Of a stretch of 64,000 nucleotides of DNA, positions 1-21,938 are shown piece by piece. The stretch's first letter is position 1; every line of letters begins with the position of its first letter. The translations under genes were made by a program, and so were the position numbers. The DNA is from Nanobdellota archaeon (lineage in GTDB: Archaea > Nanobdellota > Nanobdellia > SCGC-AAA011-G17 > JACPIM01). The notes under the pieces were generated by a model. It was not told the origin of the DNA, ran no database searches, and saw only the letters and a list, made by a program, of their open reading frames with translations. Location: assembly GCA_038046265.1 (NCBI GenBank), contig JBBSWN010000010.1, positions 75,091-139,090 of the forward strand, read 5' to 3'.

Positions 1-536
1 TGAGTTCTTAAAGGGACATTATTAAATGCAAGGCCGAGACCTTTTGTGAAAGTTGTTTTTGTTATGGAATTAAAGTAGCCGGTGCTGCCAAAAACTGTGC
101 TGACAACAATGCCGTCACCAATAAAATTTGAATTTAAACTTTTATTATTTACTTTTACATTAAACCTAATTGCTTCATATTGGTCTTTGTTTCTTATTAC
201 AATGTCGTTTATTGCTGCCAGCTTCTTGTTATTGTGAATAATATCCAGTTTTAAGTTTTCTTTTAAAGAGAACTTTTTTTGATTTAATTTTTTCAAGATA
301 AAATCAATATTGCTTAAATTATAGATAGAACATAATTTACAGATGCTGTTATCTCTAACTAATAATTTTGGTATTTTCGGGTATTTTCTTTCATTATAGA
401 AGTAAGTGCCGTCACCACCAACGCTAATTATTATTTCGGGATTTCTACTTAATTTCAGGTTTTTATATTTTAGAATTTTTTTGTTTACAAAAGAAACGCT
501 CTTTTTGTTTCTTCCTAAAACCAATATTTTTAGCAT
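1..536 (-). CDS. nadK: NAD kinase (partial; its 3' end lies beyond the window start)
   Basis: Manual minus-strand translation gives MLKILVLGRNKK...IISVGGDGTYFYNER...AAINDIVIRN...GDGIVVSTVFGSTGYFNSITKTTFTKGLGLAFNNVP. It has the GGDGT motif and the DG...ST.GSTxY signature of NAD kinases. There is no stop before position 1. The ATG is at 534-536 and an in-frame stop lies upstream at 762-764. Confidence 0.6.
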   Translation of the reverse strand, partial: MLKILVLGRNKKSVSFVNKKILKYKNLKLSRNPEIIISVGGDGTYFYNERKYPKIPKLLVRDNSICKLCSIYNLSNIDFILKKLNQKKFSLKENLKLDIIHNNKKLAAINDIVIRNKDQYEAIRFNVKVNNKSLNSNFIGDGIVVSTVFGSTGYFNSITKTTFTKGLGLAFNNVPLRT

Positions 537-570
537 TACTTTTATAAAACTAGGATTGTTAATAAAGCTT

Positions 571-1638: not shown

Positions 1639-2308
1639 ATTTCTTGGCTCCTTTTTTAGTTTTTTCTGCTTTTGCTTTTTTTGGCTTTGTTTTTTTAGGC
1701 TCTTTTTTTACCTCTTTCTTTGGAACTTCTTTTATTTGAACTTTTTCTTCCTTTTTTAATTCTTTTTTCTCAGGAAGAGCTTTTAGCTTTTTCTTTTTTT
1801 CCTTAACTTCATAACCAAGAGCTTTTAACTCACGCTTTATTGTTTCTGTTGATTCATTTTTTTTAATATCTAATTTTTTATCCAAAGTTTTTAAGTGAAG
1901 AACATTGCATTTTCTTCTTTTTAACTGGCCGTCTATCAAGACAAAATTTTCATCTAATTTATCTATAATAACACATACTGAACCTGCTTCTCTTCCTGCT
2001 GTTTTTACACATAGTTGACCAAGTTCTAAAGGCAGTTCTTTTAGGTTTTTGAATTTTTCAATTATTTTTTCTCTAGAACATTTTGAGCACAAGTTTCCTC
2101 CAAAAGGCCTGGAAACTGTTTTTTGCGAGTATGGAAGATTTCTGAAGACAAACGGTCTTTCTCTTGGTATTCCTTTTAAATCATGACCACAAGAACCGCA
2201 TTTTGCTATTGACGGCTTTCTTTTTATGTAATGAACTGCTAAATTATTTCCAGGTGTTCTTACCTGGATTCTTCTTAAGCTTCTTGTTGCCTGAGGTTGA
2301 AATGCCAT
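1637..2308 (-). CDS. rpl34e-rpl14e: In-frame fusion of ribosomal proteins L34e (N-terminal) and L14e (C-terminal) with a lysine-rich tail
   Basis: The N-terminus MAFQPQATRSLRRIQVRTPG...CGSCGH...CSKCSRE is the L34e zinc ribbon. Residues from about 95 (LGQLCVKTAGREAGSVCVIIDKLDENFVLIDGQLKRRKCNVLHLKTL) are the L14e KOW fold. No stop and no in-frame ATG/GTG/TTG separates the two parts (the junction codons are CTA AAA GAA CTG CCT TTA GAA CTT GGT CAA). A roughly 55-aa K/E-rich tail follows. Confidence 0.7.
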   Translation of the reverse strand: MAFQPQATRSLRRIQVRTPGNNLAVHYIKRKPSIAKCGSCGHDLKGIPRERPFVFRNLPYSQKTVSRPFGGNLCSKCSREKIIEKFKNLKELPLELGQLCVKTAGREAGSVCVIIDKLDENFVLIDGQLKRRKCNVLHLKTLDKKLDIKKNESTETIKRELKALGYEVKEKKKKLKALPEKKELKKEEKVQIKEVPKKEVKKEPKKTKPKKAKAEKTKKGAKK

Positions 2309-2768: not shown

Positions 2769-4165
2769 TCCATCATTTTTCTGAAAGCGGGATTCATGTC
2801 TGCCATGTGCTGCTTACTGATATCTTCATATAATCTGTATATAATCATTACTGTCAGCAAGATTCCTGTTCCACTTGACAATGCTCCGAGCAAGTCTGCT
2901 GTTGCTGCCAACAACCCAACTGCTACTGCTCCCATTACAGTTAAAGGAGAAATGTATCTTTCTAATAATCTTTCAACAACTCTAGGGTCTCTTCTAAAAC
3001 CAGGAACTTGAAGACCAGAATTAATTATTTGTTTTGCCTGGGAGGATGCATCCATTCCAGATGTCTGGACCCAGAAAACTGAAAATATTATAGAACCAAT
3101 TACAAAAGAAAGTATGTAAACCAAGGATTTAAGTATTAAAATTGGATGGAAACTGCCACCTAAAATTTCTGCTGGCAGATTAGGAGCAAAAAGCCAGGCA
3201 ACTAGGCCAGAAACTGGAACATTGCCTGCAAATGTACCTAACAATGGAATGCCTTTGCTTTCTAATAATCTTGCCCATAATTGAATATTTGCAAACAAAG
3301 CAGCTATTAATATAACTGGAATATTTGATGTGTAAATGAATTTTAAAGGCCATCTTATGCCATGACCTCTGATTCTTCCAAAGCTTAATGGAATTTCCAC
3401 TTTCATAGATTGAGCATATGTTGCTATAAGGAAAATTAAAATTGTGAATACAATTAACAAGGCTGCTAGAAAAGCTTCTCTAGGATTTCTTCCTATTAAG
3501 GATAACAAGAAAACCCATAACTGGCCGACTGGACTTTCACCTGTGCCAAATGCAAATGTTCCTGCTCTTGTTAAAGGAGAGAAAATTCTTATAAAAATCT
3601 GGGAAGAAACACCAGCTGCTATAAACAATGAAATACCAGAACCAAAACCCCATTTATTTAAGACTTCATCCATGAACAAGACCACCATGCCACCAACAAA
3701 CAACTGGAATATTAATATTAATTGAAGATAAAAGAATGTTGATTGAAGCAAATTTTGAGCAGGAGCAAGACCACCTAAAAGCACGTAAACTATAGCTTCA
3801 AAAATAATGAAGAATACTGCTGCTATTTTTTGGACACCCTGGAATTTTGTCCTGCCTTCTTTTGTTGTTGTGTCAAATTTCAATATTTCAGAACCTACCA
3901 ACAACTGGAGAACTATGGATGCTGTAACTATCGGGCCAATACCCAAAGATAAAATGCTGCCAAAGCTTGCCCCCAACAATATTGACAAGGATTCAAATTG
4001 AGATAATGCGTTTTGACCAAGACCATACAATGGAACAACACTAAGAATATAGAAGGCTGCTAAAATAGTTAAAGTCCACTTTAACTTAATATTGAAAGAA
4101 AGGTGTTTTTCATCTGGACCTTTTACTTCTGGAAGCTTCCTTATCCAATTGTCGAGAATACTCAT
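2765..4165 (-). CDS. secY: Preprotein translocase subunit SecY
   Basis: 466 aa with 10 TM segments. It ends the ribosomal operon after L15. Confidence 0.9.
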   Translation of the reverse strand: MSILDNWIRKLPEVKGPDEKHLSFNIKLKWTLTILAAFYILSVVPLYGLGQNALSQFESLSILLGASFGSILSLGIGPIVTASIVLQLLVGSEILKFDTTTKEGRTKFQGVQKIAAVFFIIFEAIVYVLLGGLAPAQNLLQSTFFYLQLILIFQLFVGGMVVLFMDEVLNKWGFGSGISLFIAAGVSSQIFIRIFSPLTRAGTFAFGTGESPVGQLWVFLLSLIGRNPREAFLAALLIVFTILIFLIATYAQSMKVEIPLSFGRIRGHGIRWPLKFIYTSNIPVILIAALFANIQLWARLLESKGIPLLGTFAGNVPVSGLVAWLFAPNLPAEILGGSFHPILILKSLVYILSFVIGSIIFSVFWVQTSGMDASSQAKQIINSGLQVPGFRRDPRVVERLLERYISPLTVMGAVAVGLLAATADLLGALSSGTGILLTVMIIYRLYEDISKQHMADMNPAFRKMME

Positions 4166-4572
4166 TGTTCTAAAACTTGTCCACCTGCTTTTTCTATTTT
4201 TTCTTTTGCGCTTTCTGAAAATTTAGGCACTATTACAGTAATTTTCTTGTTTATATTTCCTTTGCCTAATAGTTTGTTATAACCTAGGTTTAATAAATTT
4301 ATTTTGTCTTCCTTGAATTTATTTAAGTCTTGAACATTAATTGTTTTTATTTTTAACAAGACTTTTTGAGGTCTTTTAAAGCCAGTTTTTCCAAAGTAAG
4401 CGTGGCCAAATTGCTTTAAGATCATGGTTTTTCTATGGTCAGATCTTTTACCTGTGCCAGACATTCCATGGCCGCCTCGATTTCCTGCTTTTCTATGCTT
4501 TTTCTTACTACCCCAGCCATATGTATAGCTTCCTTTCTGCCTTGAATTTTTCTTTCTTTTGTTTACTGGCAT
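4162..4572 (-). CDS. rpl15: 50S ribosomal protein L15 (uL15)
   Basis: Basic, glycine-rich N-terminus (GHGMSGTGKR) in the conserved position. Confidence 0.85.
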   Translation of the reverse strand: MPVNKRKKNSRQKGSYTYGWGSKKKHRKAGNRGGHGMSGTGKRSDHRKTMILKQFGHAYFGKTGFKRPQKVLLKIKTINVQDLNKFKEDKINLLNLGYNKLLGKGNINKKITVIVPKFSESAKEKIEKAGGQVLEQ

Positions 4573-4669: not shown

Positions 4670-5146
4670 CTAAATCATTTTTTGAATTAAATCATTTATT
4701 TTTTCTTTTCTATAGCCTAATGAACCGCCTAATGAATATGGTTTTTTTGTCCCTGATTTTTCAAAACCACCTTTTGGCGGGCATAATTTGAAAAAATTTT
4801 TTAAACCAGGAATATCCTTGAATTCTTTTTTTGAATTTAAGAACTGCTCTGAAAATTCGTCTAATGATAATTTTGTTTTGTCTTTGACATAATTTTCTGA
4901 GAATTTTTCTTTTTTTGTGATTTTACCTCTTTTAACTAACAATAATTTTAAAGTTTCTTTGTTAATTTCACCCCATGTGACAAAGTCATTTATTTTCTGG
5001 ATTATGCTAGCATAATTTTGAGAAGAAGAAACTATGGTGCATGTAAATTTATTATATAATCTTAATAATTTAAATGTGTCCTTAATTTCCTTTTTTATGT
5101 TTACTTGTCCAGCAAGCCTGACAATAGCTAATCTCTTGTTTTCCAT
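4670..5146 (-). CDS. rpl30: 50S ribosomal protein L30 (uL30)
   Basis: Lies between S5 and L15. The N-terminal ferredoxin-like domain is MENKRLAIVRLAGQVN. Confidence 0.8.
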   Translation of the reverse strand: MENKRLAIVRLAGQVNIKKEIKDTFKLLRLYNKFTCTIVSSSQNYASIIQKINDFVTWGEINKETLKLLLVKRGKITKKEKFSENYVKDKTKLSLDEFSEQFLNSKKEFKDIPGLKNFFKLCPPKGGFEKSGTKKPYSLGGSLGYRKEKINDLIQKMI

Positions 5147-12645: not shown

Positions 12646-13157
12646 TTTTTAACTTCCTTTGAACCTTCTTTAGAAGAAGCTTCACCAAGACTTTTCTTTG
12701 GACTTTCTTTAGAAGCACTTGGAACTTTTTTTGAATCTGGTTTTTTCTGTTTTTCAAAAGCATAAATTTCAACATTTGTTCTTTTTTGTCTTCTTCCCCT
12801 ATGCCTGCTATAATGCCATGACAATGATGCCTGGTTTGTAATTGCCTTGTCAATCTGCAATGATTCTGAGTTAAGGCCCTTGTTTCTTGCATTGCCTTCC
12901 AATGTTTTTAACAAATTGAGGAAGTGCAGAGATGCTTTTTTTGGATAAAATCCAGGACCTAAATGGCCCTTTTTATGGCCTCTCTTATGATAAAATCTTT
13001 TTAATTTTATTACTGCTTTTTCTTCTATGACTTTGTGCAATGTGTCTTTAATTTTAGAGACTTCCTTGCCTTTCATGAACATGCAGAGCTCTATTGCGTG
13101 CTTTGTTGAAATAGGCAAATTAAATCCAGATGCTTTTACTAAGTCTTTTTCTGCCAT
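12642..13157 (-). CDS. rpl22: 50S ribosomal protein L22 (uL22) with an S/K-rich tail
   Basis: Begins MAEKDLVKASGFNLPISTKHAIELC. Confidence 0.85.
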   Translation of the reverse strand: MAEKDLVKASGFNLPISTKHAIELCMFMKGKEVSKIKDTLHKVIEEKAVIKLKRFYHKRGHKKGHLGPGFYPKKASLHFLNLLKTLEGNARNKGLNSESLQIDKAITNQASLSWHYSRHRGRRQKRTNVEIYAFEKQKKPDSKKVPSASKESPKKSLGEASSKEGSKEVKK

Positions 13158-13163
13158 TTTAAT

Positions 13164-13562
13164 TTACTTCTTAGGAGAAGCTCCTGCACTTGACCTTGTT
13201 GCTCCAATTCCTGGAGCAGAGTGCTGAACTCTCTGCCTTGTTGTAACAAATTCACCAAGTGCATGACCTAATTTCTCAACTGTAATCTGGACAGGAACAA
13301 ATTCCTTTCCACTATAAACATAAATTGTGATTCCTAGAAATTCAGGGATAACAATCATATCCCTGCAGTGGGTTTTTACTATTTTCTTTACTTTCCCTAA
13401 CTTGAATTTTTTTACTTTTTCAACTAGTTTTTTATGCGCTTCTGGAAGACCTCTTTTTAAAATTCTTCGAGGTCTTGAAGTTGTAATTAGCATGAAGTCA
13501 TTTACTGTCATGTCTTTTAATTCTCTTTCATTTTTTCCTTTGTATAATGCTTCTTTTGCCAT
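13164..13562 (-). CDS. rps19: 30S ribosomal protein S19 (uS19)
   Basis: Contains GHALGEFVTTRQRVQHSAPGIGATRSS. Confidence 0.9.
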   Translation of the reverse strand: MAKEALYKGKNERELKDMTVNDFMLITTSRPRRILKRGLPEAHKKLVEKVKKFKLGKVKKIVKTHCRDMIVIPEFLGITIYVYSGKEFVPVQITVEKLGHALGEFVTTRQRVQHSAPGIGATRSSAGASPKK

Positions 13563-13563
13563 T

Positions 13564-14286
13564 TTACTTTCTGCCTGTCCTTCTTGCTGCTACTTTACCA
13601 ACTTTTCTTCCAGGAGGAGCGTCTCTTGAGACTACTTTAATCTTTGCATGTTTTCTTCCTCTTCCTGAACCATAAGGATGGTTTAAAGCATTCATTGCAA
13701 CTGCTGAAGTTTGAGGATAAACTTTTCCTCTTGCTCTCATATAATGCCATCTTTTTCCTGCTTTTACAAAAGGCTTGTCTTTACGTCCATGACCAGATAA
13801 AGTTCCTATTGTTGCCCTGCAGTCTGGGAGGAATTTTCTTTGTTTTTTTGATGGTAATTCTACTAAGATTGAGTTTCTTGTTATGGATATTATTTTTGCA
13901 CAATTTCCAGCTGCTCTGCAGAATTTTCCGCCGTCTCCTGGAAAGCTTTCTATATTATATACTAATGTTCCTTCTGGAATTTGTTTTAAAGGAAGAGTAT
14001 TTCCATTGTTTAAAGAAGATAACAAACCCGATTCTATTTTATCATTAACTCTTAAATTTGAAGGAGCAAGCATAAACGCTTCTTCATTGTTTTCGAATTT
14101 TATTTTTGCCAATGGTGTTGTGTGGCCTGGGCATTTTACTAAGTCAACTACCTTTCCTGTTATTTTTCCTGATTTTTCAAACTGGTCAAATTTTCTATAT
14201 TTTACTTCTGCTAAAAAATGATTGGAGCGAGCTCTATATACGGGTGTTCCTCTTCCACGTCTCCTGATAATTATACGTTTTCCCAT
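13564..14286 (-). CDS. rpl2: 50S ribosomal protein L2 (uL2)
   Basis: Begins MGKRIIIRRRGRGTP and contains HPYGSGRGRKHAKIKVVSRDAPPGRKVG. Confidence 0.9.
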   Translation of the reverse strand: MGKRIIIRRRGRGTPVYRARSNHFLAEVKYRKFDQFEKSGKITGKVVDLVKCPGHTTPLAKIKFENNEEAFMLAPSNLRVNDKIESGLLSSLNNGNTLPLKQIPEGTLVYNIESFPGDGGKFCRAAGNCAKIISITRNSILVELPSKKQRKFLPDCRATIGTLSGHGRKDKPFVKAGKRWHYMRARGKVYPQTSAVAMNALNHPYGSGRGRKHAKIKVVSRDAPPGRKVGKVAARRTGRK

Positions 14287-14603
14287 TATACTTTTACCTC
14301 TGAACCAGTTTCACTTAATATTCTTGTTAATCTACGTTTTGCCTGCATATCTCTTTCTAATTTTTGTTGAGTTATTCTTTCAATTCCAAGTAGACAGGTT
14401 GGCTTGTTTGTTATTTTACCATCTTCTTCCATTATCCAGTTGTCTAATACTAAAAAGAAGACTTCTGGTTGACTTGAGTGAAAAACATGAGCTCCTGTTG
14501 ATTCTGAGAAACCTAAATACGTTGCCGGATTTTCTGGATAACCTTTTATCTTAAAGGCTTCTCCTTTCTTCAAATCTGGTTTTTTGTAATATTCTTCTAC
14601 CAT
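14286..14603 (-). CDS. Hypothetical 105-aa protein inserted between rpl23 and rpl2
   Basis: It is translationally coupled on both sides. There is a 2-nt gap after the rpl23 stop, and its own stop overlaps the rpl2 start. It has no recognisable family and is less lysine-rich than its neighbours. Confidence 0.45.
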   Translation of the reverse strand: MVEEYYKKPDLKKGEAFKIKGYPENPATYLGFSESTGAHVFHSSQPEVFFLVLDNWIMEEDGKITNKPTCLLGIERITQQKLERDMQAKRRLTRILSETGSEVKV

Positions 14604-14605
14604 TT

Positions 14606-14863
14606 TTACATTAATCCTAATTTTGTTGCTACATCAAGAGCTATGTTATCTTTATGGAGCTTTACAAATGCTTTTTTTCCTTCTACTCCTATTAAAGTGT
14701 TTATTTTTTGGACTTTTACATGAAACATTTCTTCAACTGCTTTTTTTATTTCAGGCTTTTTTGCTTTTCTGTCTACTATGAAGACTATTTTGTTTTCTGT
14801 TTCCATTAACTTGAAACATTTTTCAGTTGCTATTGGATATTTTATTATTTCATGACTTTCCAT
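14606..14863 (-). CDS. rpl23: 50S ribosomal protein L23 (uL23)
   Basis: 85 aa, in the conserved position after L4. Confidence 0.8.
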   Translation of the reverse strand: MESHEIIKYPIATEKCFKLMETENKIVFIVDRKAKKPEIKKAVEEMFHVKVQKINTLIGVEGKKAFVKLHKDNIALDVATKLGLM

Positions 14864-15749
14864 TTAAACCTTCTTTCGGGGGTTCTTTTTTGACAGCTTC
14901 TTTTGAAGTTTCTTTTACATATTCTTTTGAAACTTGTTTTATTTCATTAAAAAATAACTTCTTTTCATTTAAAAGATCAATTGCATCTTTTGTGAAAAGA
15001 GTTAATCTTCCAGGAATTCCACCTGGAGCCAATAATTCAACATTAAGATTATTTATTAAAGTGCAGTCAATTCCCTTTATTGAGGACAAGATTCTTGAGA
15101 CGGGACTTTTTTTTGCAATCACGAACAAAGGGCCTTTCTTGTTTTTGTATTTTCTTCCTCTTTTTGAGCCCTGGCCTGCTTTCACTTTTCTAATATTTAT
15201 TCTTTTTAACTCGTTTTCAAGGCCTAATTTTTCAAGGAATTTTACAAGGTCTTTTGTTTTTTTAAGATCATATAATTTATTGTCAATCACTAACGGCAAT
15301 GTTTTGAATAAATGACCTCTTTGTTTTACCAAGATTTCATTTGCAGATGCGCTTAATGCAGATCTGATTGCTTTCCTGTTTTCCTTTGTGTTTATTTTTT
15401 CCTTATATATTTTATAAGCTTTAGGTGGGTGAGCTCTTCTGCCTTTGTATGTTCCTGGAGCAAATGCACCAACCCAGCCAAATTGTGAACCTCTTCTCCA
15501 TATAGTTTTTCTAGCTGATCTTGAAATTCCTTTTCCATATGAAGTTTTGAATTTTCTTCTTCTTCTTGACAATTTTGCTGAAACTCTCTGGCCTGCTTTT
15601 GGATAAGAACCATAAGGCTGTTTTTTATTTGATTTAATTGCCAGGAAAGCTCTTTGGATCAAGTCTTTTCTTAATGGCTCGTTAAATTGAGCAGGCAATT
15701 CTATTGAACCTGACTTACTTCCATCTATATTATATATGTCTGCTTTCAT
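14850..15749 (-). CDS. rpl4: 50S ribosomal protein L4 (uL4) with a K-rich tail
   Basis: Begins MKADIYNIDGSKSGSIELP... and follows L3 in the conserved position. Confidence 0.8.
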   Translation of the reverse strand: MKADIYNIDGSKSGSIELPAQFNEPLRKDLIQRAFLAIKSNKKQPYGSYPKAGQRVSAKLSRRRRKFKTSYGKGISRSARKTIWRRGSQFGWVGAFAPGTYKGRRAHPPKAYKIYKEKINTKENRKAIRSALSASANEILVKQRGHLFKTLPLVIDNKLYDLKKTKDLVKFLEKLGLENELKRINIRKVKAGQGSKRGRKYKNKKGPLFVIAKKSPVSRILSSIKGIDCTLINNLNVELLAPGGIPGRLTLFTKDAIDLLNEKKLFFNEIKQVSKEYVKETSKEAVKKEPPKEGLNGKS

Positions 15750-16708
15750 TCTTTAACCTTTAAATTAACACTTGTTATCTCGAACATTTCTGTTCTTTTT
15801 CCAGGCCTCATTGCCTCTGTCAAGACTATTGGTCTTTTTCTTACTCCGGGTAATGATCCTTTAACAAAAATAAAATCATTATTTATTAATCCATATTTAT
15901 GGAAACCAGAAACTGGGTTTACTTCTTTTACATTGTTGTTTATTTTCACGATTAATTTATTATATTCTGTTCTTTTGTGATAACCCATTTTACCTGTATT
16001 TGGAACTGTGTACCTAACTTTAGAAGGATTCCATGGGCCTGGTGTTCCTATTCCACGTACTTTTTTCTTTGATTTATGCCTTAATCTTTTAACACCAAAT
16101 CTTTTAATCGGGCTTTGGAATCCTTTTCCTTTTGTAACTGCGTGAACGTCTACTAACTGGTTTATCTTGAAAACATCTGAAATCTTGATTTCCTTATCCA
16201 AGAACTGTTTTAAGAACTCCAGCTTTTCTTTTGGAGTCTTTCCACCAGAGGCTATTTCAACAACTTCTGGTTTTTTTCTTTCTATTGACGTTAATGATGG
16301 TTTTGTGTAGACAACCAATCTAACATCATCAAAGTTGTCAGGAATATTGTTTAATTTTTTAGGAATCATAGTTTTTCTTTTTACTTCTTTGTCAATATTT
16401 TTTGAAAAAACTTCAGAAAGAACTTTTAAACCATCAAAATCTTGTTTGTAAAATCTTAAAGAAAGAGCTTTTAACGGGGGGCACTCAAGGATTGTAATTG
16501 GAATGGAAATAATCTGGTTTTTTGTTATTGAATTTGGAGTGTTGTCCTTGACCATTGCATGAGACATTCCAACTTTATAACCAATGAAACCAAGCAACTT
16601 TAATTCTTCTTTTTTAACCCAGTTATGGATTCTTGAATATGGTTTTTGAGCCCTCTTTCTAGGCCAGACCTGCATACTTCCCCTTCTCGGATGATGCCAC
16701 TTTGACAT
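15746..16708 (-). CDS. rpl3: 50S ribosomal protein L3 (uL3)
   Basis: Begins MSKWHHPRRGSMQVWPRKRA and contains FQSPIKRFGVKRLRHK. It is the first gene of the operon. Confidence 0.9.
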   Translation of the reverse strand: MSKWHHPRRGSMQVWPRKRAQKPYSRIHNWVKKEELKLLGFIGYKVGMSHAMVKDNTPNSITKNQIISIPITILECPPLKALSLRFYKQDFDGLKVLSEVFSKNIDKEVKRKTMIPKKLNNIPDNFDDVRLVVYTKPSLTSIERKKPEVVEIASGGKTPKEKLEFLKQFLDKEIKISDVFKINQLVDVHAVTKGKGFQSPIKRFGVKRLRHKSKKKVRGIGTPGPWNPSKVRYTVPNTGKMGYHKRTEYNKLIVKINNNVKEVNPVSGFHKYGLINNDFIFVKGSLPGVRKRPIVLTEAMRPGKRTEMFEITSVNLKVKE

Positions 16709-16721
16709 TTTTATTTTTAAA

Positions 16722-16752
16722 AAAGTTTAATCCAAAACGACTAAACTTGGTT
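16722..16752 (-). repeat. Degenerate copy of the motif upstream of rpl3 (operon leader)
   Basis: AAAAAGTTTAATCCAAAACGACTAAACTTGG aligns with the pfdA copy AAAAAGTGTTTACGGAAAACGACTATTTCTTGG. Confidence 0.35.
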
Positions 16753-16829
16753 TATATTTCTTTCTAGAATCAGCGACTAATTATCGATACAGTAAGGGTA
16801 CTTTTATGAGAAAAATTTGGTTTATAAAG

Positions 16830-17681
16830 CTATTGGTTTTTTTGCATGTTTTCTTTTAATTTTAGAATTGTTTCTTCTATTCTTTTTGTTATATCTGGCA
16901 GTTTAAGGCCTGTTTTTTCTAATTTAGTTGTATCTATAATAGCATCTACTCTTTTTACTTTTGATTTTTTGTCTAATTCTTCTTTTGGTTTTATGTTAAT
17001 TTCCATTTTATCTTTGAGATTATCTTTTAACATTAGCGCTATTTTATGTGGTGAAATAGTTCCTGAATTAGTAATATTAAATATTCCTGTTTGATTTTTG
17101 TCTATTAGATGCTTAGTTGCCAGTAATAAATCATCTGCAATTGTCATGCTATTTGGATTTGTATGAAATTCTTTATAATTCAGCATTTTATGAAGTATAT
17201 TTCTTGGGTGAACTTTAGAACTTAATAATAGCCTTGGTCTTAATATTAATACTTTTAGTCCTTTTTTTATTTTGTCTTGCAGTAACTGGTCTGCCCATGT
17301 TTTTGTCCACGAATAAAATGCAATTGGTTTCGGCAGGTCTGTTTCTTTGAATATTGGCTTACCGTCAATGCTTTCAAATATACAACCAGAAGAAATATGG
17401 ATTAAGAAAATATTATTTTTAAGACAGACTTTTGCTACATTATCTGCACCTAAGGTATTAACTTTGAATGTTTCTAATCTATTTTCTTCACACCAGTCTG
17501 TATTTGTTTTTGCTGCTGTGTTAATTACTATATTTGGCTTGAAATTGTCAACAGCTTTCTGAACTTCTTCTTCGTTTGTTATATCTACTTGCGCTATTTC
17601 AGATTTATAGTTGTTATTATTAAAGAAATCTTTGTATAAGTTCCCTAATTGCCCATTTCCAAAGATAAGAATTTTGTGCAT
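16830..17681 (-). CDS. NAD(P)-dependent sugar reductase, dTDP-4-dehydrorhamnose reductase (RmlD)-like
   Basis: Begins MHKILIFGNGQLGN, with AAKTNTDWCEEN and YSWTKTWADQ in the relative positions of the RmlD motifs. Confidence 0.55.
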   Translation of the reverse strand: MHKILIFGNGQLGNLYKDFFNNNNYKSEIAQVDITNEEEVQKAVDNFKPNIVINTAAKTNTDWCEENRLETFKVNTLGADNVAKVCLKNNIFLIHISSGCIFESIDGKPIFKETDLPKPIAFYSWTKTWADQLLQDKIKKGLKVLILRPRLLLSSKVHPRNILHKMLNYKEFHTNPNSMTIADDLLLATKHLIDKNQTGIFNITNSGTISPHKIALMLKDNLKDKMEINIKPKEELDKKSKVKRVDAIIDTTKLEKTGLKLPDITKRIEETILKLKENMQKNQ

Positions 17682-19775: not shown

Positions 19776-21938
19776 ATGACTAGAGTTCTTGTAACAGGAG
19801 GAGCTGGATTTATTGGACACCATTTTATTAATCATTTGCTTGTAAATACTGACTGGGAAATTATTGTTTTAGATAAATTAAATTATGCAAGCTGTGGGTG
19901 GGACAGAGTAAGAGACATAAATGTTTTTAATCCTAAAAGAGTTTCTTTATTGTCTGCTGATTTTTCTCACCTTCTTGATCAGGGACTTGTAAAAGAAATT
20001 GGAGACTGCGATTATATTTTTCATATAGGTGCTGAGACGCACGTCGACAATAGTATTTTGAATCCAGAACCTTTTGTGATGAGTAATGTTGTTGGAACTA
20101 TGAGATTATTGGATTTAGCAAGAACAATGCCAAATTTAAAGAAGATGTTTGTTTTTTCCTGTTATGATCAAGATACATTTGCTTTAACTAAAAATGGAAT
20201 TAAAAAATTTGATGAAATCAAAGTAGATGATAAAGTTTTATCTATTAATCCTAAAACCGGCGAATTAGAAGAAAAGGATGTTGAGGCTGTAATTATTCAA
20301 GATTATGAGGGAGATATGTATCATTTTGAAAGTTCCAGAGCAGACATAAAAGTTACTCCAAATCACAGGATGTTTTTTGTTTCAAGTAAGGAAGGAATTC
20401 AAGTTGAAGAGGCTAGTGAAGTGGCAAAAAGATCAGTTGTTCATTTGCCAAGAGGAAACTGGAAGGGAGAAGATCAAGAAAATATTTTTTTAGAAGGAAT
20501 CGGTTATGTAAAAACAGAAGATCTTTTTTATTTATGTGGTATTTTTATTGGTGATGGATTTACTGCTAAGCAAATAAAGATTATGGAATCGAAGAGCGGT
20601 TTGACTAAATTAGAAAGAATGGATTTGGCAAGAGATTCTGAAACTGGCAGATTTATTAATACTGGAAAGATTGGGCCAATTGAAGTTGTGACTAGTACAA
20701 GCTGGAGAATATTTTTCGATATCCCTGTTTTAGATAAAGCGAGAGAAAGGCTGGAAAACACTTTACAAAGCTTAAATATTAAATATTCTGCACATTCTGG
20801 AAAGTCAGGAGAGCATATTTATTTTTCATCTAAAGAATGGCTGAAATTTTTTGAACAATTTGGAAAAGGTGCAGAAAATAAAAACATTCCTTCATGGATG
20901 CTAGAATATGATAAAAAATATTTGAAGTGTTTATTTGAAGGCCTTATTGATAGTGACGGATATTATGGCAAAAGCCACATTCAATATACTACAATATCTA
21001 AAAAGCTTTTAAAGGATATTTGTGAACTTGGATTTAAATTAGGAAGATACCCTTTTTTTAGAAAACGATATAGTGAATCTATTTTTGAAAACAGAGTAAT
21101 TAAAGGTTATGCTTATTATATTAATTTTCCATTACAAGATGTTAAAATTGGAAATAAAAATGTTAAAATAGAAAATTACAAGGGGAAGATATGGTGTCTG
21201 AAAGTAAAAGATAATAAAAATTTTATTGTTGCCAGAAATGGCAAACTAGCTTTCTGCGGAAATACTGATGAAGTTTATGGACACGCACCAGATGGTGTTG
21301 CTTACAAAGAATGGGACAGGCATAATCCAACAAATCCTTATTCTGCTTCAAAGTCAGGTGGGGAAATGCTGGCTTTATCGTATGCAAATACTTATGGTGT
21401 TCCTGTTGTTATTACAAACTGTATGAATGTTTTTGGTGAAAGACAACATCCTGAAAAATTTATACCAAAAGCATTGAATAAAATTCTTAAAGGAGAGAAA
21501 GTTACTTTACATTATTATCCTGGAAAGGAAAGACCGGGTGCAAGATTCTGGATACATGCAAGAAATGTTGCTGCGGCAATTATGTTTTTAATAGATCATG
21601 GAAAAGTTGGAGAGAAATATAATATTGTTGGAGAAAAAGAAGTTGATAATTTAGAGATTGCAAAAATGATTTCAAAAATTACTGGCAAAGAGTTAAATTA
21701 TGAAATTGATGATACTTATATGGACAGACCAGGACATGACTTAAGGTATGCTCTTGATGGAACAAAAATGAAAGAAATGGGTTGGCATATTCCAATTCCA
21801 TTTGAACAGTCGTTTGAAAAAACAGTCAGATGGATGGTGCACGAAAATAATTTAAGATGGCTTGATATCAGCACTTATTCTAAACTTGTGAATGGAAAAA
21901 ATGCCATGCAAAAAGTTGCACTTCAATCTATCAAGTAA
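19776..21938 (+). CDS. rmlB: dTDP-glucose 4,6-dehydratase (RmlB-type short-chain dehydrogenase) interrupted by an intein
   Basis: GGAGFIGHHF Rossmann motif and the YSASK catalytic motif. The conserved S-TDEVYG motif is split by 368 aa. The spliced extein would be 352 aa. Confidence 0.8.
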   Translation: MTRVLVTGGAGFIGHHFINHLLVNTDWEIIVLDKLNYASCGWDRVRDINVFNPKRVSLLSADFSHLLDQGLVKEIGDCDYIFHIGAETHVDNSILNPEPFVMSNVVGTMRLLDLARTMPNLKKMFVFSCYDQDTFALTKNGIKKFDEIKVDDKVLSINPKTGELEEKDVEAVIIQDYEGDMYHFESSRADIKVTPNHRMFFVSSKEGIQVEEASEVAKRSVVHLPRGNWKGEDQENIFLEGIGYVKTEDLFYLCGIFIGDGFTAKQIKIMESKSGLTKLERMDLARDSETGRFINTGKIGPIEVVTSTSWRIFFDIPVLDKARERLENTLQSLNIKYSAHSGKSGEHIYFSSKEWLKFFEQFGKGAENKNIPSWMLEYDKKYLKCLFEGLIDSDGYYGKSHIQYTTISKKLLKDICELGFKLGRYPFFRKRYSESIFENRVIKGYAYYINFPLQDVKIGNKNVKIENYKGKIWCLKVKDNKNFIVARNGKLAFCGNTDEVYGHAPDGVAYKEWDRHNPTNPYSASKSGGEMLALSYANTYGVPVVITNCMNVFGERQHPEKFIPKALNKILKGEKVTLHYYPGKERPGARFWIHARNVAAAIMFLIDHGKVGEKYNIVGEKEVDNLEIAKMISKITGKELNYEIDDTYMDRPGHDLRYALDGTKMKEMGWHIPIPFEQSFEKTVRWMVHENNLRWLDISTYSKLVNGKNAMQKVALQSIK
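20160..21263 (+). mobile_element. Intein (368 aa) with a LAGLIDADG homing-endonuclease domain, inserted in rmlB
   Basis: It starts with Cys (CYDQDTFALTKNG). Block B is KVTPNHRMF. Two LAGLIDADG motifs are present (LCGIFIGDGF and LFEGLIDSDGYY). The C-terminal block is NFIVARNGKLAFCGN, followed by a +1 Thr. Flanking exteins rejoin as FVFS|TDEVYG. Confidence 0.75.

Follow-up and report, generated by a model that had tools for sequence, protein, structure and literature searches.

The window analysed here is a 64,000-nucleotide (nt) stretch of contig JBBSWN010000010.1 from a Nanobdellota archaeon (GCA_038046265.1). It carries a ribosomal protein gene cluster in which a small gene, called X in the following, separates the genes for uL23 and uL2. 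X is an intact open reading frame (ORF) of 105 codons in the ORF list of the window, running from ATG to TAA on the reverse strand, and its product is MEK6936771.1 at NCBI, annotated 'hypothetical protein' in a Nanoarchaeota metagenome-assembled genome (MAG). The whole cluster reads L3-L4-L23-[X]-L2-S19-L22-S3-L29-SUI1-p29-S17-L14-L24-S4e-L5-S14-S8-L6-L32e-L19e-L18-S5-L30-L15; it is canonical for archaea and complete, with uL23 and uL2 of normal length and no component gap. A preliminary description of this DNA had placed an ORF of 105 codons between rpl23 and rpl2, with its start 2 nt past the rpl23 stop (the spacer is 14605..14604) and its stop overlapping the rpl2 start (TAATG), and all of this holds. 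It had also called the L3-L4-L23-L2 order nearly invariant in archaea, which agrees with the canonical archaeal order in the literature (PMC10833476) and with the order in two relatives of the window genome, L006 and L007. The three genes at the centre of this work are the following.

14286..14603, (-) strand: gene X, 105 amino acids (aa), clade-specific, with a predicted small β-barrel and C-terminal helix (basis: ORF, homologues, ratio of non-synonymous to synonymous divergence (dN/dS), AlphaFold2 (AF2) model)
14606..14863, (-) strand: uL23 gene, 85 aa, directly upstream of X (PF00276, E 8.3e-18)
13564..14286, (-) strand: uL2 gene, 240 aa, directly downstream of X (PF03947, E 4.4e-39)

AT-rich genomes yield shadow ORFs, and several on the opposite strand overlap the X region, which is the argument for taking X as an artefact (an ORF open by chance, a misassembly or a piece of L23 or L2 wrongly split off). 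We give this a negligible probability, and the data refute it. Indeed, the identical gene was assembled independently from several Hainich groundwater samples, and homologues occur in 10 other lineages. From composition, the probability that a frame of 105 codons stays open by chance in sequence of 31% GC is ~2e-4 to 9e-4, and only 5 of 100,000 shuffles of the region kept the frame open. Both neighbours are full length and share no profile similarity with X. The preliminary description had considered that X might be a mispredicted extension of L2 or L23; profile comparison with hhalign stayed below 2%, the lengths of the neighbours are normal and their ends are as in outgroups. The uL23 of the window has the usual archaeal length, and its C-terminus, ATKLGLM, is as in L006 and L007, which lack X.

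An exhaustive phmmer search of 1.84 billion representatives returned ten small relatives of X (100-119 aa), and a scan of metagenome contigs with a three-member alignment found one further relative. The family comprises 12 distinct sequences of 100-119 aa. A word-indexed homologue search with the single X protein returned X itself alone. A scan of the GTDB species genomes with the uL2 of the window picked up five relatives, two of them close and three distant. The two close relatives are Woesearchaeota MAGs (uL2 89% and 85% identical), and both carry an X homologue, of 113 or 107 aa, at the L23/L2 junction. X is absent in L006 (uL2 53% identical) and in L007 (49%), where L23 adjoins L2 with a spacer of 1 nt or 9 nt; absence in distant relatives is based on these two genomes, the third (L008, uL2 41%) having been left out. 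Clade-wide presence rests on the uL2-based scan together with the X-based searches.

The genomic context is known for 11 distinct sequences, 10 of which are encoded downstream of L23 and upstream of L2. The order is L23-X-L2 in the window and L001-L003, in L004, L005, L010/L011, L013, L015, L016, L017/L021 and L018-L020; it is L23-X-pentapeptide gene-L2 in L009 and L23-X-mini-ORF-L2 in L012. At 90% clustering, each uL23 is a singleton. X is confined to a narrow Woesearchaeota/Nanoarchaeota clade of very small groundwater archaea whose uL2 proteins are at least 72% identical, the next relatives having a uL2 only ~50% identical. Neither the 64-kb window nor any of the fetched loci holds a paralogue of X, the sole extra match being a C-terminal remnant in L012. 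The preliminary description had proposed a lineage-specific gene, and this distribution bears it out: X is limited to a narrow clade, present in close relatives and found there at the same position. We consider it very likely that X is a real, conserved, clade-restricted and position-locked gene. Furthermore, the distribution firmly supports a single gain, in which X would have arrived between uL23 and uL2 only once, in a common ancestor of this narrow lineage of Woesearchaeota type (DPANN), and would have been retained since, because X is absent where uL2 is 53% identical or less (L006, L007) and L23 abuts L2 there.

Both ends of X are tightly joined to their neighbours. On the coding strand the 5′ junction reads ...GGATTAATG TAA AA ATG GTA... 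and the 3′ junction reads ...GTA TAATG GGA..., and each is preceded by a motif resembling a Shine-Dalgarno (SD) sequence.

14604..14608, (-) strand: 5′ junction, with the L23 stop TAA (14608..14606) and a 2-nt spacer (14605..14604), followed by the X ATG at 14603..14601 (basis: sequence)
14284..14288, (-) strand: 3′ junction TAATG, where the final A of the X stop TAA (14288..14286) is also the first base of the L2 ATG (14286..14284) (basis: sequence)
14615..14618, (-) strand: SD-like AGGA in the last L23 codons (Leu-Gly-Leu), 11 nt 5′ of the X ATG (basis: motif position)
14296..14300, (-) strand: SD-like GAGGT in the 3′ end of X, 9 nt 5′ of the L2 ATG (basis: motif position)

This arrangement is kept across the family. 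In all 10 related loci, 1-2 nt separate the L23 stop TAA from the ATG of X, and the distance from the X stop to the next ATG is -1, 0 or +1 nt, except in L012, where a 20-codon mini-ORF bridges the gap. Nine of 10 loci have an AGGA, encoded by the conserved Leu-Gly-Leu of L23, at 10-11 nt ahead of the X start. Before the gene that follows X, one of AGGAG, GAGGT, GGAG, GAGG or AGGA is found at 9-16 nt in 7 of 9 loci (at 9-13 nt in 5 of these), often encoded by a conserved Gly of the X C-terminus. From their placement, the motifs at both junctions would work as SD sequences.

The mini-ORF of L012 (920..982, (+) strand) lies between X and uL2 and reads MTQIKKTKLAKILSDVGVKL. Its sequence corresponds to the C-terminal helix in the X family (profile positions 87-107); the X stop overlaps its ATG (ATGA), and it ends in TAAATG at L2. 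It looks like the leftover 3′ end of an earlier, replaced X allele, kept as a link in the coupling chain.

Translational coupling is known in prokaryotic operons, and on this ground ribosomes could be expected to reinitiate across the X junctions. X is encoded within the ribosomal protein operon in 10 of 11 contexts and would be co-expressed with it. It had been suggested that coupling is preserved at both ends of X. Junctions of the coupling type do occur in every relative, reinitiation itself being what they imply, and we think that X is probably translated in a coupled manner with L23 and L2.

The alignment of 11 sequences shows 7 invariant and 5 near-invariant positions at a mean identity of ~35% to the window protein, and the spread in length (100-119 aa) is due to indels in one loop. 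Prediction with AF2 was poor from the single X sequence (predicted local distance difference test, pLDDT, 66.7) and confident from the 11-sequence alignment (pLDDT 88.6, predicted template-modelling score 0.81). The model has seven β-strands within residues 16-78 and a helix at 79-99. A Foldseek search of this model against PDB and BFVD gave nothing significant, the top weak matches being KOW and Tudor domains. X is therefore best described as a predicted small β-barrel of the Tudor/KOW/SH3 class with a C-terminal amphipathic helix, as a statement of fold class and not of homology. The conserved Y17, Y22, Y29, F41 and W56, together with the invariant H39 and D54, could form an aromatic cage or ligand pocket. 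No signal peptide or membrane segment was found in the X sequence.

Sequence-family searches gave no relative of known function. Pfam, NCBIfam, PHROGs, PADLOC and PDB sequences, searched both with X by itself and with the alignment of 11 members, hold no family for X, and the profile search of PDB sequences with the X family returned nothing. None of the 11 members matched a ribosomal protein family of Pfam, or the KOW, Tudor or SH3 models of Pfam, at E up to 1. The structure prediction and homology search that had been proposed as a check on X gave a confident fold and no significant match to a known family or structure. With hhalign, X reached a probability of at most 1.9% against L3, L4, L23, L2, S19, L22, S3, L29, SUI1, p29, S17, L14, L24 and S4e, which rules out X as a diverged duplicate of a neighbouring barrel protein (the uL2 SH3 domain, uL24, eS4, uS17 or p29). 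One further candidate came from phmmer, which matched X to P0008, an 836-aa bacterial repeat protein composed of Flg_new_2 repeats (InlB B-repeat), with E 2.4e-6 over 4 stretches. X as a divergent InlB B-repeat was rejected, as hhalign gave 0.3-0.5% against P0008 or its aligned repeats and the Flg_new_2 model of Pfam did not match.

The preliminary description had found X less lysine-rich than its neighbours. Among ten measured operon genes X does have the least lysine (10.5%, compared with 11.3-18.8% in the rest), but the contrast is slight for L2, which is nearly as lysine-poor (11.3%) and draws its charge from arginine. The description had also offered a foreign insertion, tolerated in the operon, as an origin for X. 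That X is an insertion agrees with the outgroups, in which L23 and L2 adjoin directly. For a foreign origin, on the other hand, the one hint is a homologue outside the operon (in L014, see below): the GC content (0.33) and the GC content at third codon positions (0.21) resemble those of neighbouring genes, no flanking repeats or insertion scars bracket X, and no viral or defence relatives were found in PADLOC, PHROGs, IMG/VR contigs, GenBank phages (tblastn) or BFVD (Foldseek).

The protein sequence of X changes roughly tenfold faster than those of its neighbours, a result that is firmly supported. By the Nei-Gojobori method, dN/dS of X is 0.29-0.80 in 15 of 15 pairs, compared with 0.05-0.32 in the flanking genes, and its non-synonymous divergence is 0.21-0.63, compared with 0.03-0.21 for L23 and L2. 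In identity, X reaches 36-68% where flanking genes stay at 72-94%. The relationships differ as well. By their ribosomal proteins, the window genome, L004 and L010 form one group (~90% identity to each other), L005 and L009 a second (85-96%), and L013 is an outlier (~64-79% to the rest). The X of the window is just 36-42% identical to that of every other genome, its closest relatives included, and the X of L004 is 68% identical to that of L009, in the other group, and 40-42% identical to those of the window and L010. Synonymous divergence (dS) of X is above that of the flanks in some pairs and below it in others. This pattern may reflect allele exchange or deep allelic lineages, and we take it only as a hint because dS is near saturation.

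Variation is also visible within one aquifer population, in which the L004-type allele occurs as 13 variants (P0003/P0014-P0025), all full length at 113 aa. Their amino-acid changes fall at seven positions and in many combinations, some beside the invariant Asp of the LLDDHW motif, and changes inside this conserved motif were E62D/K, H64N and W65L. Comparison of L004, L019 and L020 gave one synonymous difference over ~1,060 flanking codons and one non-synonymous difference in the 114 codons of X.

We propose that X would be translated from a polycistronic L3-L4-L23-X-L2 messenger RNA by termination-reinitiation, and would therefore be made at roughly the level of ribosomal proteins. Translation of L2 would in turn depend on ribosomes reading through X. 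Such a positional lock would explain how the sequence of X can drift although its frame and its two junctions never vary. Since initiation of L2 would depend on termination of X, any imprecise deletion of X would damage an essential gene. A soluble and uncharged barrel with an amphipathic helix suggests a binding adaptor, and not an enzyme or a core protein bound to ribosomal RNA. The likeliest function, in our view, is binding to a partner protein of the peripheral translation apparatus, either on the ribosome surface or in the form of newly made, basic uL2 or uL23, and the binding surface of X would be under weak or diversifying selection. There is a precedent in the context, as other non-ribosomal genes fixed in the cluster (SUI1 and RNase P p29, present in the window and described in PMC10833476) are related to translation or RNA. 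A translation-linked function of X as a peripheral adaptor, drawn from operon position, expected synthesis at ribosomal protein levels and type of barrel, remains tentative, at somewhat below even odds. For the whole chain, a real and coupled gene with a function at the translation periphery, we put the probability at about 0.4. A more specific version appears unlikely to us: X would be a DPANN-lineage protein that docks on the large subunit or escorts nascent uL2 or uL23, with an exposed surface that diversifies as a contact point in conflict, such as one against a ribosome-targeting factor from a virus or host.

Several observations weigh against a role in translation. The arguments for ribosome association come down to operon position and a fold class common in ribosome- and polymerase-binding proteins. 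The net charge of X is 0, compared with +5 to +46 in the other measured operon genes, and across six long loci X is 36-68% identical where L3, L4, L23, L2, S19, L22, S3 and L29 are 64-96% identical; neutral charge and evolution at ~10-fold speed make X unlike a ribosomal protein. In the L018 assembly, where ambiguous consensus sites are marked N, X (3995..4336) has 17.5 ambiguous sites per kb, compared with 2.5 per kb overall, which marks it as a hot spot of polymorphism in one population. The exception to the operon context is P0010 (117 aa), encoded at 192..545 on the (+) strand of L014, a contig of 1.1 kb, among overlapping small membrane-like ORFs; a hydrophobic segment is present in two of these, none could be placed in a family, and none is a ribosomal gene. 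This homologue hints at a source outside the operon. Unrelated genes also stand beside X in sister genomes. In L009, a 197-aa pentapeptide-repeat protein (1686..2279, (+) strand; PF00805, E 6.8e-21) is encoded between X and uL2, with a TAAAATG junction after X. In L005 (Woesearchaeota SRP178908_co1_347), an extra 92-aa ORF (3725..4003, (+) strand) is tightly packed between uL2 and uS19; it matches nothing in Pfam or PHROGs, and the other loci hold no relative. Because of these extra genes, the ribosomal protein operon of the X clade seems to accept cargo whatever its function, and such cargo seems to have landed repeatedly at the L23-L2 junction.

Charge, L014 and the inserted genes, together with the enrichment of ambiguous sites, all favour X as hitchhiking cargo with an unrelated role, such as one in conflicts of these episymbiotic archaea with hosts, viruses or other cells, the operon being just an expression platform and the rapid change an arms race. 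The same explanation draws on the tenfold non-synonymous divergence, on the conflict between the X tree and the ribosomal protein tree (X of L004 nearest L009, and not the window or L010), on the many-combination polymorphism at seven positions in one aquifer and on Hsp20 as published non-ribosomal cargo in the S10-spc cluster of Thor- and Odinarchaeota (PMC10833476). It has to face the lack of matches in PADLOC, PHROGs, IMG/VR contigs and GenBank phages, a sequence without signal peptide or membrane segment, native-like composition, pairwise dN/dS below 1, and retention at one junction while uL2 diverged to 72%, which is long for a dispensable gene. By itself we hold this explanation to be rather unlikely; an unrelated hitchhiker function is, all the same, almost as likely as a function at the translation periphery.

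It is less probable still that X has little or no protein function and that selection acts on the open frame and the junctions, as a relay that delivers ribosomes to the L2 start and is hard to remove cleanly. Junctions and ORF integrity are indeed the most conserved features of the gene, its length varies from 100 to 119 aa through indels in one loop, dN/dS rises to 0.7-0.8 in some pairs, and the 20-codon leftover of L012 has been kept as a coupled mini-ORF. X is more than a spacer, however, because 7 invariant and 5 near-invariant residues persist at ~35% mean identity, a confident fold is predicted from only 11 sequences and dN/dS is consistently below 1; moreover, a functionless protein made at ribosomal protein levels would be costly in a streamlined genome. 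Finally, operon position and coupling would give stoichiometric synthesis, which could make X a novel core protein of this lineage's large ribosomal subunit, placed close to uL23 or uL2 and perhaps standing in for a lost component. We regard this as very improbable, given a net charge of zero, very fast evolution with high polymorphism, the lack of a match to any ribosomal protein family of Pfam in the 11 members at E up to 1, and a surrounding cluster that is complete, with uL23 and uL2 of normal length.

Some further features were recorded in the window and the fetched loci. The gene between uS5 and uL15 (4670..5146, (-) strand, 158 aa) is without a precomputed Pfam match; it is a divergent uL30, with 22.3 bits for PF00327 against a cut-off of 23. 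At 19776..21938 on the (+) strand the window encodes a 720-aa NAD-dependent epimerase/dehydratase (GDP-mannose dehydratase-like) with an intein, called from a precomputed Pfam match (PF14890, Intein_splicing) on the identical contig L001, and L013 has an intein-bearing radical-SAM gene upstream of the ribosomal protein operon. In L016 (597..616, (+) strand) uL2 starts with MCKRII, where MGKRII is otherwise invariant; the contig is short, and this is either a sequencing error or a real variant. No RNA element matching Rfam was found at 13000..17200 of the window.

L3-L4-L23-L2 is among the most stable of gene orders and serves as a set of phylogenetic markers in work on uncultured archaea. The lineage studied here tolerated, and then long kept, a fast-evolving gene exactly at the L23/L2 junction, with further unrelated insertions nearby in sister genomes. 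X offers a natural example of how translational coupling may lock a new gene into an essential operon, and a caveat for pipelines that assume a contiguous ribosomal block. It is also a concrete candidate for a lineage-specific, translation-associated protein of DPANN archaea, whose ribosomes have to our knowledge been the subject of no biochemical study to date. If the docking or escort reading is true, a hypervariable ribosome-associated protein would be encoded in the most conserved archaeal gene block; if X is unrelated cargo, it would be a curiosity of genome organisation and not of ribosome biology.

Among known proteins, the predicted likeness of X is to barrels of the same class. The Tudor-like domains of CarD/CdnL, Mfd and PcrA/UvrD, which interact with RNA polymerase, are bacterial and 8-13% identical to X without a sequence or profile match; X differs from them in its extra strands and single C-terminal helix, and the likeness is only one of fold class. 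PipX likewise has a Tudor-like/KOW-like domain followed by C-terminal helices, but it is limited to cyanobacteria, stands in another gene context and has no sequence similarity to X (Foldseek probability 0.04). The KOW and SH3-barrel proteins (the uL2 SH3 domain, uL24, eS4, bL19 and the KOW domains of Spt5/NusG) are basic, whereas X is not; no KOW or ribosomal protein model of Pfam matches X, and hhalign against each operon neighbour remained below 2%.

As to the locus, a full-text literature search found no paper describing X or its insertion between L23 and L2. SUI1 and RNase P p29 have belonged to the archaeal S10-spc cluster since ancient times. Like X, SUI1/aIF1, p29 and Hsp20 are non-ribosomal-protein genes inside this cluster, X being co-oriented with it. 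X is unlike SUI1 and p29, which occur across all archaea, evolve slowly and have known functions. The closer parallel is Hsp20, inserted in the S10-spc cluster of Thor- and Odinarchaeota, which its authors described as an unusual horizontal transfer in a highly conserved cluster (PMC10833476). Like X, it is confined to one lineage, and because of this restriction both would have been acquired secondarily. In contrast to Hsp20, which belongs to a known family, X belongs to none, splits the L23-L2 pair and is hypervariable. What is new in X is a family without an annotated relative, a position that splits L23 from L2, and strict positional conservation combined with a hypervariable sequence.

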